A DNA stretch of 64,000 nucleotides from Octopus sinensis (lineage: Eukaryota). Where the stretch lies: the NCBI RefSeq assembly GCF_006345805.1, contig NC_043000.1, positions 102,486,001 to 102,550,000 on the forward strand, given 5' to 3'. How positions within the stretch are numbered: position 1 is the stretch's first letter; every line of letters begins with the position of its first letter. A program made the position numbers and the translations under genes. Of this stretch, positions 45-60,928 are shown piece by piece. The notes below the pieces were generated by a model. The model saw only the letters and a program-made list of their open reading frames with translations, did not search any database and was not told where the DNA came from.

Positions 45-105
45 GATAAAACTCTGAGTTTCGGATGCCGAGGTGGAAATCCACAACACCATCTCTTCAG
101 TTATC
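45..105 (-). ncRNA. Type I hammerhead ribozyme-like motif (PLE type)
   Basis: Minus strand reads GATAA-CTGAAGA-GATG..CATC-C-GAAAC-TCAGA-GTT-TTATC. This gives the CUGANGA/GAAA core, stem I GAUAA/UUAUC, stem II GAUG/CAUC, near-palindromic stem III CUCAGAG and a GUU cleavage triplet. It lies between (AT)n tracts. Confidence 0.7.
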
Positions 106-389
106 TGACCATATGAAAAACACTATGAAAAAATAATTGCCACATATTTTACAGATAAATTTCCTCTATTTACATAATATTGAGGTCTCTTTCTGTTGTT
201 ATCTTACCGTTTTTTACCAATATATATATTTATATATATATATGGGAGAGAGAGCGAGCTTTCAAATCAACCGTGTGTGTGTCTGTGTGTGTATGTGTAT
301 GTGTAATCTTTGGATTTGTATTACACATTCAATGCTTTATTAGAAACCACACTCCTATGGTCAGGTACGAGTTTGCATGATTTATTTTC

Positions 390-810
390 CCCAAAGTTTC
401 TTACCTCAAGAACTTGGGTGATTCCTCCATGTGGCCACACAATCTGCTAGAAATAGCAACCGAGTCACCTTCAAACCACAATTTAGTGTCTCAAAAATGA
501 ACACGTTGCCTAATGTAGTTCTACACGCACTATGTCTAAAAACACGTGACATCTTTCATTATGCATCTACTGGGTGAAGTTGGCTTTGTGTTAAAGAAAA
601 ACTACATCATCCCTTGACTTGCTACAAACAGCAGTCAAATTTCCTTCAAAGAAAAACTAACCACCTTTTTTAAAAGGGAATGATGCATTGATCAATGTAG
701 TCCAAGGTACATTTTGCCTAGAAAAAGACAGGATAATCATGGCAGGAAAGTCCGTGATTTGTAGACTCAAATCGGTCAGAGATGACATGGAGTTTAGACG
801 ACAACAATAA
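390..810 (-). repeat. Old dispersed repeat (two decayed copies), family with a 'gagatttggctgctatttctagcag'-like core
   Basis: The same degenerate core recurs at about 2260, 14925, 37335, 45195, 58770, 63400 and 63870. Confidence 0.45.
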
Positions 811-2339
811 CAACGTGTAGACAAAAAGCTTCTATATCGTTGTAAAACGATCTGTCTATTGTAGTATTCAAATTTCCTTGATCAATTTCTTATGTCATAT
901 TTTTAGTGTCCAAAAAATCATTACCACAATAAAGCTGAGTTAACTACAATCGATTGGAGCAAACCTTTCGTCCGACTGCTGAAGATGTAAAACAATATCT
1001 ATTGAAAATATTATAAACCTATTTCTCTGAATTTGTGCCGCTCAATAATATATAATGGAATACGTGTTTTATCTTTCATTTATTGTTTTCTAGTTTTGGT
1101 TTACCATTCCTGTCAGATGCAAATCAGAAGGGAAAAATACAAACCGTTTGAGGAGCGGATGACAAGGGCGAGGGTTGGATTTCTTTGTTTGAGGTAGAAA
1201 ATAGAAACGATTTCCGTGAAGCAATCATAAAAAGACAACAATTACTATCTCTTATTAGCACCAAAGTAGAAAAGAAAAGAACTATAAGAAATTAATGTTA
1301 ATTTTCATCATATCTCCTGTTTCATGCAGATCTTTTAGAGAAATCACAGACAAATTATTTTCTTTTTCTTCTTTTTTTTTCAATTCCTTTTTTTCCCCTT
1401 TTTTTCTTTTTTCCTTTTTTTTTTCCTGTTTCCCCGTCTATTTTGTATATGTTAAACAATTCACCAGAGAAATGAAAGTAGATATTACGAAAATTGAGCA
1501 ATAAGTAATAGCTCCGTGATTTCTACCTCATTAAATGGAGGAAATTTGCCGCTGTCATATCAATCGGGAAAGTATTAACATATAAAGGTAATAGTTAGCT
1601 TGCAGCTATAACAGTTTAGTCTGATGGTGAAATAGATATTTCATTAAGCCAAAAATAAAAAATCTTACATGCTTCATGCAATATTCATGAAAGATCTTCT
1701 AAAGTTATTATACAAAAGAAAGAAAAAATAATAATATACAAACCTATATATGTTTCTTATACTTCAAAAACTCTAAGATTAACGAAGCATATCAGTATAT
1801 AATTTAAGATTCTGATATCATGTGCATTATCTGTTTTGTATTTCTATACCGTATTATATAGAACTGGTTGATTGCGTGATTAATATTTTTTGTTAAATCG
1901 ATATTTTTTATTAACCACTTCGAAATGGTTGACTTAGATGAAGTATTGATTAGCTATTTGTTAGGTAAAAAGATTTTTTAAAAAGACAAAGTCTAAGAAA
2001 GTAGGTGATGGTCTACGTCAGCAAAAAGTTATACTGTGACATTTGTGAGCTTAGATTTTCTTTTATGCTTGCTAAGCTCGGAGAAAGGGGCAGCGCCTGT
2101 AGCCTCCGCTGGCCCTCCTAGAGCAATTAGATCGATGGCATTAATTTTTCAACTTGACCTAGCATATGTATAATGAAAGATGTTCTGTTCTTTTTAGACA
2201 TAGTGTATGTAGTGCCATATTATGCAATGTGTTCGTTTTTGAAACGCTGAGTTGTGATTTAAAAGTGACTAGGTCACTATTTCTAACAGATTGAACGACC
2301 ACATACAGACATTTAAGTCAAACCCCAGAAAGAAAGACA

Positions 2340-2620
2340 TGAGCAGAGTAGAAATTCCAGAGTGCTGACGTTCGCGGTAAAACGAATTGGAAATAGTGAT
2401 ATGTGCGAGGTTTAGACAGAGTTGTATACTATAAGGGTGACTGGAAGAGAATATATGATTGGGTCAGAAGTGATTGGCTGGGAGCGGTCACGATCCCTGC
2501 TAGTTCTGAGGAGCGAGGTGAATTATATTCACGATAGAATAAGTTTCTATGTCCCGGAGCGTATAGGACTCTAACGTTTTGTGAGTGTCTCGACATCAGA
2601 AACAATCCAAGCAAATTTCA
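2340..2620 (-). mobile_element. Decayed LINE 3' fragment (CR1/Jockey group)
   Basis: Minus-strand peptides LFYREYNSPRSSELAGIV and PRTYHYFQFVLPRTSALWNF resemble the LFYRY..CSSELA..PRT..LWN C-terminus of CR1/Jockey-group ORF2. Confidence 0.5.
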
Positions 2621-2695
2621 TCTCTTTCACGGACCAAGCTGCAGTGTCGATACCTCAGGTATCTCCTCATCTCACGATATACAAAAATATCTAAA

Positions 2696-2850
2696 CAAGT
2701 CAGGAGCAAGCTGTGGCCCGCGAGGCTTTCTGAATGGCACACCTATCGAAAAATTACCTTTATTATTATTTTTTATTTAGTAGTGCTGCTTGTCTGATGA
2801 TGAACAACGTTTCATGCGGCCCGGTTCTCGATACAGGGTGTCCATGCCTG
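2696..2850. mobile_element. hAT/Charlie-like MITE remnant
   Basis: Internal GTGGCCCGCG and TGCGGCCCG motifs, right end gtgtccatgcctg, and ATCTAAAC on both flanks (similar to the Charlie nTCTARAn target). The left terminal inverted repeat (TIR) is degenerate. Confidence 0.4.
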
Positions 2851-58425: not shown

Positions 58426-60667
58426 ATATATGTAATTTAAGACTCCAATTAGCGAATCGTAATGAATACGTTTCTCACTATGTTGTAAATGTGACTTTTA
58501 GGAAGAACTGGTGTCAAATATTCAATTAGTTCACAATATCTGAAATATTTCAGAAATATCTGGTTCTACTTCAGTTGTCTACAAATCATCAGTTATGCCA
58601 TGGCTTCAAAAGCTGTTTTATCAATTGTTTGGTGCTTCTGAAATATCTACTCTATACTGAGCGAACAGTTCTATGGTCAAAAGTAATCCAGCTGTAAAAA
58701 CCTTTTCTCGTTCGAGGCACAGTGTGTTCATAAGTTAAAAAAATACAAAGATCTCGGAAAAATCTGACTAACTCTTTCTAACAGGTCGATGTTTAATTTT
58801 GAAAATAGATACGTTGGATTTGGAATAAATATATGCTTCCGGCGCTATAACTAACTTTTACCCAGCTCGCCAGCGATATGCAACACCAGTGATTTGTTAA
58901 TCACAGTTTTTTCTGTATCAGTTAAAGCGAAATCTGTCTAAACATGTGGTTGCCTGTGTATGCTTGCTACTGATAACGCGCAAAGATACAGAGATCCGAA
59001 TTTAGCAATTCAATAGAAGCTGCTGGACGTTTTTCATCTGTTACTGATATTTCTGTGAAACTGAACAGATGCGTGCTGGATCTGTTCAGATTCACTCACA
59101 GATTTTTAATTACTTTTTTTTTAACTAAACAGATTGAAACTTTGTATACTGGTGTAATTTCTCACGCTGAACACGGTTTACTCTCAACATTTTCGACAAA
59201 ATTTCGTATTTTAGAAGTTAGTTCGTGTTGAAGTTGTCGTATTCGTGTTAAAGTTGTCGTGTGACTGTGTGTGTGTGTGGTGTGTGTGTGTGGTGTGTGT
59301 GTGTGTGTGTGTGTGTGTGTGTGTGAAGACAGGAAAGTGAAATTTTAGAAGGATCTGGCTGTTACTCGAAGCAAATCGAGTAACATGTAGATATACACTT
59401 AGAATAATTGTAGCATTTATCTCGTAGGAAATAAAATTGTTTTTCAACCCCCAAACCATTGCAGCATTTTAAAGTAAGATAATATTTTAAAACAATATTA
59501 GCAACGCTGTTTTTTAACTTAGTTACATAGCCTTGACTTTTAGGACAAAGCAATAAAGTTGATTTATATTGTCCCCAATACTTAACTGGTACTTTATTTT
59601 ATCAAATCCTAAAGGATAAAAGGCAAAATTGACCACGGTGGGTTTTGAACTCAGAACCCAAAGGATGTAATTAAATGCTGTAAAGCATTTTTATGATTTT
59701 GTCATATGAAGAGCAGCTATGACCCTTTCCAAGAGTCACTGATTCTTGTGAGCGAAAGAGTTGAAGTTAACTCGAAAGTAGAAATATGGCCCGAATTAAA
59801 AGCACTCAAGAGCCAGATGGTAGTGTTAAGCCAAGCAAAAATTGAAACATCCCTGCGGTGGTTTCCCCAATAATTTTCCACCCGTTAACTGAACGTCACT
59901 CAAAAGGATATAGTGGCGCGAATCTACGACAGATGCTTTTGCTCAAAGTGTCGGGCAACGAGATATCGAACCCAAAAAAACACGTTTTTCCGAAACGAAT
60001 TTCTTAATCATGCGGTCATGCTTACCACTATACTGATTGATTTCCCCCTCTCCAGCCTTTCGTAAATATTCGTAATACTACTAATGTTCTTTCAGTCATC
60101 GCGTGACTGCTGTCGAGTCAAGTTATAAATATATATAGAACTTTTAATAGATTGAGATTGGTTATTGCTAATTAATAGTTCTAAACACATAAAGACAGTT
60201 TAATAGTCTTGAAGCAACATGGTCTGATATGATTGTTAATGAGTCATTTATGTAATGGGCGCACAAATGATTATGTGGTTAATAAGTTTGCTTCACAACC
60301 ATATGGTTCTGGGTTCGATGTCACTGCGCAGCTACTTGAGCAAACAACCTCTACTGTGACCTCGAGTCGAATGTGGTATATGAGAGGTGTGAGAAACGCG
60401 TCTTATAAATATATACTCAAAATAAGCAACAAGAATGACTCCGGTAATTTGGTACGATCGTTTCGTACTACATCATTTTATTAAATGTTGTAAGTTATAT
60501 ATATATATATATATATATATATTATATATATATATATATATATATATATATATATATATATATATATATATATATATATATGTAGGTCCGGGTTGATTCG
60601 GGGTTAACCACAGTAAATAAGGTACTCAATACATAGCAGAGTAAAATTAATTTATTATATAGAAGGA

Positions 60668-60716
60668 GCTTCTACAGGACTAGAACTGTTTCATTCAAGA
60701 GAAATCTTCAGGAAGC
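60668..60716 (-). ncRNA. Type I hammerhead ribozyme-like motif (minus copy)
   Basis: GCTTC-CTGAAGA-TTTC-TCTT-GAAT-GAAA-CAG-TTCTAGTC-CTG-TA-GAAGC. Confidence 0.7.
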
Positions 60717-60719
60717 AAT

Positions 60720-60766
60720 CTTCCTGAAGATTTCTCTTGAATGAAACAGTTCTAGTCCTGTAGAAG
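60720..60766 (+). ncRNA. Type I hammerhead ribozyme-like motif (plus copy)
   Basis: CTTC-CTGAAGA-TTTC-TCTT-GAAT-GAAA-CAG-loop-CTG-TA-GAAG, with predicted cleavage after A60762 (GUA). Confidence 0.7.
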
Positions 60767-60885
60767 CTCCTTCTATATAATAAATTAATATATATATATA
60801 TATATATATGTATGTATATATATATATATATGTGTGTGTATGAATATATAATGTGTGTGTGTGTGTATATAATGTGTGTGTGTGA

Positions 60886-60928
60886 CAGAGACTTCGAAGT
60901 TTCTCCTGAGATCACCTTCGTCAGACTG
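60886..60928 (-). ncRNA. HHR-like motif with weak stem II
   Basis: cagt-CTGACGA-aggtgatctcagga-GAAA-CTT-CG-AAG-TC-tctg. Palindromic stem III ACTTCGAAGT and a GUC triplet. Confidence 0.45.

Follow-up and report, generated by a model that had tools for sequence, protein, structure and literature searches.

Ten hammerhead-like sites in a 64-kb window of the Octopus sinensis genome: probable worn copies from seven interspersed repeat families

We analyzed a 64,000-nucleotide (nt) stretch of the Octopus sinensis genome (G000:C4:102486001-102550000 of the 2.72-Gb assembly; this whole stretch is called the window below), in which an earlier note had marked ten sites, numbered 1 to 10 here, as motifs resembling hammerhead ribozymes. 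Our analysis favors a reading of the ten sites as mutated copies belonging to seven families of interspersed repeats (F1 to F5, F7, and F8), several of which likely descended from the minimal type I hammerheads of Penelope-like elements (PLEs). All copies in the window carry changes that break a conserved box or a helix, many of them of the CpG-to-TpG type, and the copies are predicted from their letters to be inactive. The window is of a known kind, that of PLE-type minimal hammerheads and their non-autonomous carriers, with worn copies mixed with look-alikes; the only unusual points are families with C at core position U4 (U4C) and hairpin elements embedded in (TA)n. In an animal genome rich in repeats, the result tells descent from a known class of ribozymes apart from mere resemblance.

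Hammerhead layout in the window and in the genome

Two descriptors were used to count the layout. The loose descriptor required CUGANGA, GAAA 6 to 60 nt further on, an A...U helix III of at least two pairs, H at position 17, and a helix I of at least three pairs, leaving helix II free; the strict descriptor also asked helix II to start flush at the core and to hold at least three pairs, and it was run both without an extra nucleotide and with one. The loose descriptor matched the window seven times, at 44-106(-), 7644-7723(+), 40445-40489(+), 52990-53033(+), 58532-58597(-), 60668-60716(-), and 60720-60766(+). Five of these seven are sites of the earlier note, and the matches at 7644-7723(+) and 58532-58597(-) lie beyond its ten. 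Dinucleotide shuffles of the window gave a mean of 0.75 loose matches when made globally and 0.90 when made in 500-nt blocks, and a count of seven was reached in 0/100 shuffles of either kind. As decoys, 180 permutations of the core letters were run on the real sequence, and the true core ranked first among the 180 (7 matches versus a mean of 1.06; runner-up, 4). Because shuffles and permuted cores give far fewer matches, the loose layout is commoner than chance in the window, and the excess over shuffled sequence that had been expected of it is present. The strict descriptor gave 0 matches in the window, with or without the extra nucleotide; with either C or U allowed at position 4, site 4 was the sole match.

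A wider sample places these counts in context. Across 446 kb of flanks around unrelated targets, the true core gave 10 strict matches without the extra nucleotide and 6 with it, versus a mean of 0.31 for 179 decoy cores (maxima of 4 and 3). Expressed per 64 kb, the genome background is 1.87 strict and 4.6 loose matches, compared with 0 strict and 7 loose in the window, so that the dense motif population is a property of the genome, of which the window is an average or poorer sample. The Rfam model Hammerhead_1 gave 8 matches above its cut-off among 74 scored genome candidates. The dense and diverse population that had been proposed therefore exists at the level of the genome, whereas the window is not denser than this background.

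The letters described for the ten sites stand at their positions, except that site 4 reads CCGACGA rather than CUGACGA and site 7 has no GAAA box. Among the palindromic helix III words that had been named, ACGT, ATAT, and ACTTCGAAGT are real, but TCGCGA (site 7) adjoins no GAAA. Stem letters do vary between families as claimed, but the kept topology is what the descriptor itself selects for. The sites were also said to lie mostly beside microsatellites; in this AT-rich window (33-45% G+C), where microsatellites of period 6 or less make up 8.2% of the sequence, six of the ten sites lie within 100 nt of one versus 23% of the window that close.

Repeat families behind the ten sites

Nine of the sites fall into families of hundreds to thousands of first-look candidates in the genome (Table 1). 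Forty candidates were scored in each family search, and 40/40 matched in each; because only 40 were scored, the first-look counts are rough lower bounds. The proposal that the motifs come from distinct families is upheld, the ten sites resolving into seven repeat families.

Table 1. Features of the window, with their repeat families and first-look candidate counts in the genome (rough lower bounds). (.), no single strand.
Feature	Family (sites)	Position (strand)	First-look candidates	Remarks
F1 element	F1 (site 1)	10..221 (+)	at least 2171	between (TA)n runs; internal 35-nt inverted repeat, tail of ~65 nt; limits from 30-copy alignment
Site 1 motif	F1	45-105(-) (descriptor 44-106)		CUGAAGA..GAAA; helix I of 6 bp
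PLE open reading frame relic		23348..25360 (-)		reverse transcriptase and C-terminal GIY-YIG; frameshifted, 5'-truncated; abuts (TA)n at 25361-25410
F2 copy	F2 (site 2, and 10)	40440..40521 (+)	at least 541	5'-truncated at GT/TA microsatellite; decayed minimal-hammerhead motif at 40445-40489
Site 2 motif	F2	40442-40493(+)		CUGACGA-U..GAAA; helix II broken
F3 copy	F3 (site 3)	40520..40700 (-)	at least 1038	site 3 motif at 40615-40660(-)
F4 copy	F4 (site 4)	51140..51444 (+)	at least 2001	ends in (TA)n; site 4 motif at 51316-51350(+)
F5 inverted pair	F5 (sites 5, 6)	52800..53130 (.)	at least 287	arms at 52906-52943(-) (site 5) and 52993-53030(+) (site 6)
F7 retroposon-like repeat	F7 (site 7)	53240..53528 (+)	at least 1027	A-rich tail, then (CA)n; site 7 look-alike at 53382-53434 on opposite strand
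F8 element	F8 (sites 8, 9)	60582..60785 (.)	at least 253	between (TA)n runs; palindrome of ~140 nt; site 8 at 60668-60716(-), site 9 at 60720-60766(+)
Short F2-type relic	F2-type (site 10)	60886..60928 (-)		10-nt palindromic helix III; helix II unpairable; cut off by (CA)n

Better-preserved relatives of the window copies were found in F5 and F2. In F5, 13/30 distinct arms match the strict descriptor in its extra-nucleotide form, the nucleotide being U; an example, the L086 arm TCTTCTGAAGATGGGCCTTTGTGCCCGAAATATAAAGG, has the extra U, a 4-bp helix II, AUAU, A17, and a 4-bp helix I. Within the CTGAAGA word of the F5 alignment, T16 and A18 are invariant and C15, G17, and A19-A21 nearly so. The pair at 10.1/11.1, which is a CpG place, is G-C in 6/31 arms and G-U in 24/31. 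Site 6 in the window reads CUGAAGA-U, with helix II decayed to 2 bp, and the core of site 5, already described as mutated, indeed reads CUUAAGA. The strict descriptor accepts three F2 copies with CUGA (L203, L209, and L245) and two with CCGA (L202 and L257); the accepted copies have the extra U, a 4-bp helix II, helix III ACUUCGAAGU, C17, and a 5-bp helix I. The alignment of site 10 with F2 takes in helix I, the core, the palindromic helix III of 10 nt, and the CTGTCA that comes after it, and we assign the site as an F2-type relic because this alignment runs from helix I to six bases past helix III; the genome search with site 10 gave no further copy save one weak match.

As read from their sequence, intact members of F2 and F5 fit the published layout of the PLE minimal hammerhead: CUGANGA, then a single unpaired nucleotide following A9, helix II with G10.1-C11.1 as its closing pair, GAAA, a helix III that is a palindrome, H17, and 4-5 bp of helix I. 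That class is marked by a base that stands between residues 9 and 10.1, a conserved G10.1-C11.1 pair, a palindromic 15.2-16.2 region, and covarying consensus families (Cervera and de la Pena 2014, PMC4209133). F2 to F5 appear to share the first three of these features, with the second mixed in F5; the fourth, covariation, was sought in F5 and was not found there. The nucleotide between A9 and 10.1 is U in F2, A in F3, A in F4, and U in F5, is missing in F1, and is ambiguous in F8. G10.1-C11.1 is present in F2, F3, and F4 copies, and the palindrome at 15.2-16.2/loop 3 is ACGU in F4, AUAU in F3 and F5, and ACUUCGAAGU in F2.

Judged by their sequence features, F3 and F4 would each be a near-miss of this layout. 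Site 3 reads CUGAAGA-A..GAAA, with an extra A after A9, an imperfect helix II, and a helix I that is not flush. Across the family, the core CUGAAGA is kept in 24/29 copies and GAAA in 20/29, and 6/29 combine AUAU with a helix II of at least 3 bp, which reaches five pairs where it is best preserved; helix I in these six has only two flush pairs, giving the published layout with a weak helix I. F4, including site 4, has all helices present in the minimal-hammerhead layout, but its core is CCGACGA, with C at U4. At position 51321 of the F4 copy, no other letter reaches 10% in the contigs of three runs.

The F1 and F8 motifs appear to be non-canonical near-misses. Site 1 has an irregular helix II in which an unpaired C precedes GAAA, and F1 as a family shows the unpaired C in the 3' strand of this helix. 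The CUGA of site 1 is itself a C-to-T change from the family majority, CCGA. In F8, CUGAAGA is kept in 28/29 copies, and helix II and the GAAA word are identical in 29/29, with a U.U at 10.1/11.1. Sites 8 and 9 are the two arms of one perfect hairpin (60676-60759 in an Rfam look-alike match; ~140 nt overall), which has a minimum free energy (MFE) of -117 kcal/mol. Two further loci, L192 at 3016-3081(-) and L138 at 603-640(-), carry a compact motif with the helix III word of F1, ACUCAGAGU, and a short helix II, helix I being 18 bp long in L192; this motif is possibly a relative of F1.

Site 7 is a chance resemblance, because the F7 majority reads CUUAAGA (14/19 copies) without a GAAA box and because the motif lies on the strand opposite to that of a repeat whose tail is A-rich.

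The F4 copy has two further features. Directly before it, at 48835-51100, lies a long imperfect CA/GT-rich microsatellite tract that includes a 44-nt period repeated 20 times at 49214-50126; a CA-type run is found on the same side in 17/29 other F4 copies. In runs X1, X4, and X5, which are guessed to be RNA, a 128-nt core of F4 at 51278-51405 exceeds its own flanks ~100-1000x in summed word depth, and this core may be a module common to several repeat families.

Insertion context and Penelope-like elements

Three of the families are embedded in (TA)n. In F8, 29/29 copies have (TA)>=4 runs no more than 40 nt from either end; by the same measure F1 has them on the left in 29/29 copies and on the right in 27/29, and F4 has them at the 3' end in 28/29. 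No such pattern holds in F2, F3, F5, and F7. The (AT)n association that was to be checked is therefore found in F1, F4, and F8 and not in the other four families. Since the flanks at F1 and F8 are (TA)n runs, a target-site duplication cannot be read there. A search beside F1, F4, and F8 for tRNA-like heads found them at 0/44 loci. Copies also occur in inverted pairs, three of them in the window, all head-to-head. Inverted pairs of F3 are head-to-head in 12/12 cases, with near-constant outer ends and variable inner ends, and the same orientation is seen in 6/6 same-family strict pairs in other loci.

A PLE relic is present in the window, as had been stated, because four PLE open reading frames (ORFs) of the same genome match 23348-25360(-). 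These ORFs, 762-883 amino acids (aa) long and from GIY-YIG loci, align with the relic by tblastn at 44-69% identity in three main pieces and three frames, and its short C-terminal piece is 30-43% identical to the same ORFs. Elements of this type are abundant in the genome: the Pfam GIY-YIG domain gave at least 5029 first-look candidates, with open frames of up to 883 aa. Two full-length relatives of the relic, L196 and L197, end directly in (TA)n. At another locus, L198 (G000:C8:18815500-18823500), a PLE ORF of 775 aa has upstream of it, in the same orientation, a canonical ~80-nt hammerhead whose helix II is long. An inverted partner of this hammerhead is found ~700 nt further out, and the hammerhead family was also met by chance in several unrelated loci.

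Upstream of the relic in the window, with the (TA)n between, is a further head-to-head pair of hammerhead-like motifs beyond the ten, at 25633-25701(-) and 25890-25949(+). It reads CUGAGGA..GAAACAUAUGU, and its helix II is open at 10.1/11.1.

We propose that the families would be spread by the reverse transcriptase and GIY-YIG endonuclease of PLEs through target-primed reverse transcription, often into (TA)n. Such spread would leave 5'-truncated copies and head-to-head inverted pairs, and the motif of source copies that are active would cleave the transcript as a dimer by way of its palindromic helix III. Inverted 5'-truncated copies and a (TA)n bias are both described for PLEs in parts of one published account (PMC8557442).

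An alternative for F1, F8, and perhaps F5 is that they are non-autonomous DNA transposons resembling TA-targeting miniature inverted-repeat transposable elements, in which case the motif in their arms would be incidental. The inverted repeats are long (~140 nt in F8, 35-nt arms in F1, and arms of at least 88 nt in F5), the flanks are TA-rich, and one F5 locus (L073) holds a fragment of a Tc1-type transposase. However, only the F5 arms reach the element ends; those of F1 and F8 do not, and a ~65-nt tail remains on one side. Moreover, each side carries a (TA)>=4 run in 29/29 copies instead of one duplicated TA, and the center of F5 pairs and the inner ends of the F3 partner arms are variable, as 5' truncation predicts. 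We regard a DNA transposon origin as unlikely and continue with spread by PLEs as the preferred explanation.

The microsatellite-targeting PLEs known as Naiads offer a parallel for this explanation. They share with the window families the (TA)n insertion bias, the 5' truncation, and the inverted 5'-truncated copy at the 5' end, and some Naiads, like F1 and F8, have hammerhead core boxes that fall outside stem descriptors (Craig et al. 2021, PMC8557442). However, the GIY-YIG domain of Naiads is N-terminal, whereas the window relic and its full-length relatives have it at the C terminus, and no autonomous partner was identified for F1, F4, or F8.

Descent, look-alikes, and activity

Several results weigh against descent of these families from PLE hammerheads. 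The first concerns the core: C stands at U4 in 26/29 other F1 copies, CCGACGA is read in 27/29 other F4 copies, and the 30 F2 copies are split at this position (T 14, C 12, G 3, A 1). In F2, C is mostly accompanied by TTAAC as the loop word and T by TTAGC, which points to two subfamilies or, judging by the letters, to CpG decay of CCGA; with F2 divided in this way, the CUGA of sites 2 and 10 may be a C-to-T change as well. A CUGANGA word read in a single copy can thus mislead, given that the word at site 1 departs from its family's CCGA and that the family of sites 2 and 10 is split between T and C. The second concerns the helices. Across 32 F5 arms, paired cells amount to 89.3%, but the observed values were attained by 342/500 and 173/500 shuffles, so that covariation does not exceed that of shuffles; the absence of covariation is the expectation under neutral decay of copies. 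MFE folds of single motifs are mostly not predicted to be hammerheads, and whole inverted pairs are predicted to fold into hairpins of -106 to -118 kcal/mol, which would compete with the hammerhead fold.

Searches with Rfam and against PLEs add to these points. Rfam hammerhead families had 0 matches in the window at the gathering score, none among the best 150 of the 220 window matches at E<=10, none at E<=10 on the 2160 nt surrounding the ten sites, and none in 11 short stretches around intact F2, F3, F4, and F5 motifs. A canonical positive control in the same 12-stretch search scored 34.8 bits and was the sole match; Rfam's models miss the variants found here. The full-length loci nearest the relic contain no hammerhead by the loose descriptor, and blastn of the seven families found no similarity in the 12 GIY-YIG/PLE loci sampled, so that a link of the motifs to PLE ORFs or termini, also put forward for checking, was not recovered in these 12. 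The many microRNA matches in the Rfam scans fell below gathering and were set aside as microsatellite or hairpin look-alikes.

These results raise the possibility that the families were never ribozymal, with short words recurring in purine-rich or hairpin-rich repeats and the enrichment arising from amplified repeats. The best family copies lack an Rfam match, F5 lacks covariation, site 7 is shown to be chance, and the T/C pattern at sites 1, 2, and 10 is as such resemblance would have it; in addition, the enrichment counts are not independent where one palindrome yields two matches. However, the decoys face the same repeats yet give 0.31 matches against 10 and 6 in the flanks and 1.06 against 7 in the window. 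The extra nucleotide, G10.1-C11.1, and the palindromic helix III recur although the descriptor does not ask for them, as published for PLE minimal hammerheads (PMC4209133), and the layout persists in unrelated families whose helix letters differ. Taking these data together, we give pure resemblance a low probability and retain descent of several families from PLE minimal hammerheads as the favored reading.

A different question is whether the window still holds about ten retrozyme-like modules that cleave as dimers and give circular or cleaved RNAs, as the earlier note's wording of ribozyme-bearing modules would suggest. The enrichment of the loose layout over shuffles and decoys, the palindromic helix III words, the true hammerheads elsewhere in the genome, and the very high summed word depth of the F4 core at 51278-51405 in three runs guessed to be RNA would all fit such modules. 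Against this, the strict descriptor has 0 matches in the window, a box or helix is broken in every copy, and contigs bridge the predicted F4 cleavage site. The RNA evidence comprises contigs of runs guessed to be RNA, from which RNA starts, ends, strand, and cleavage cannot be read because the runs are contigs. Nor does the retrozyme-like form hold: Tandem Repeats Finder (TRF) reported five arrays of period 40 or more in the window, none of them overlapping a site. Parts of two sources describe retrozymes as head-to-tail tandem arrays with units of ~170-400 nt that yield RNAs of circular form (Cervera and de la Pena 2020, PMC7229834; Li, Clavereau and Pollet 2026, bioRxiv 10.64898/2026.07.22.740005). 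The window elements resemble metazoan non-long-terminal-repeat retrozymes, as far as these parts describe them, in being non-coding, high-copy, and equipped with type I hammerhead motifs, and in that retrozymes too are thought to be mobilized by PLEs; unlike retrozymes, they are solo or in head-to-head inverted pairs, with no array at a site. Modules that are still active in the window are accordingly very improbable in our estimate, and the preferred reading remains that of worn copies.

PLE minimal hammerheads, with which a study by Lunse, Weinberg and Breaker (RNA Biol 14:1499) is reportedly to be named, are among the known systems nearest to the window families. The window families are like that class in their type I layout, the unpaired nucleotide between 9 and 10.1, G10.1-C11.1 in F2, F3, and F4 copies, a helix III that is palindromic and very short, and a helix I that is short. 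The likeness extends further in that there are many consensus families per genome, mostly solo, with pairs on opposite strands 100-700 bp apart; the published dual motifs lie on opposite strands at this same spacing of 100-700 bp, and the published motifs have low in vitro activity even as dimers (PMC4209133). Unlike that class, they have a helix II of 4-5 bp rather than the 7-8 bp seen in Schistosoma, C at U4 in two families and about half of a third, and window copies that are all broken, and the seven families were not found in the terminal repeats (pLTR) of ORF-bearing PLEs at 12 loci.

The U4C families and the (TA)n-embedded elements admit one further reading. F4, F1, and part of F2, whose source would read CCGANGA, together with the hairpin-plus-tail elements F1 and F8, might form a distinct (TA)n-targeting, PLE-mobilized, non-autonomous class with a weakened or variant hammerhead or no cleavage at all, which we consider quite doubtful. 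Viroids provide a comparison for both core changes: an extra nucleotide after A9 is a hammerhead core variant there (De la Pena and Flores 2001, as cited in PMC4209133), and a U4C variant has lower in vitro activity while still permitting infectivity, according to the relevant part of PMC3088659. The window families resemble these variants in the extra A or U after A9 in F2 to F5 and in the C at U4 in F4, F1, and part of F2; they differ in that the viroid cases are single variants with tested activity, whereas the families are known from sequence alone. If the U4C families were active, or spread without cleavage, they would bear on whether PLE hammerheads are needed for retrotransposition or ride along, a need that has been raised as a question for Naiads in the corresponding part of Craig et al. 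(2021, PMC8557442).

The window also contains other repeats and coding relics. A reverse transcriptase ORF relic at 29344-30888(+) was weighed as a PLE candidate and dismissed: its closest relatives of solved structure are LINE-1 ORF2p (E ~1e-16), and Atlas gave only a generic RVT_1, so we assign it as a long interspersed nuclear element (LINE), not a PLE, because of these LINE-1 relatives. The ORFs in two other loci, L169 and L046, had no PDB match. A tandem repeat at 27097-27720 (295 nt x 2.1 copies, 98% alike) contains no hammerhead-like motif by the descriptor scans. Another relic of LINE type, at 20784-21524(-), carries a zf-RVT domain, and the pol relic of a long terminal repeat-type retrotransposon, with RNase H and integrase core domains, lies at 46329-47753(-).

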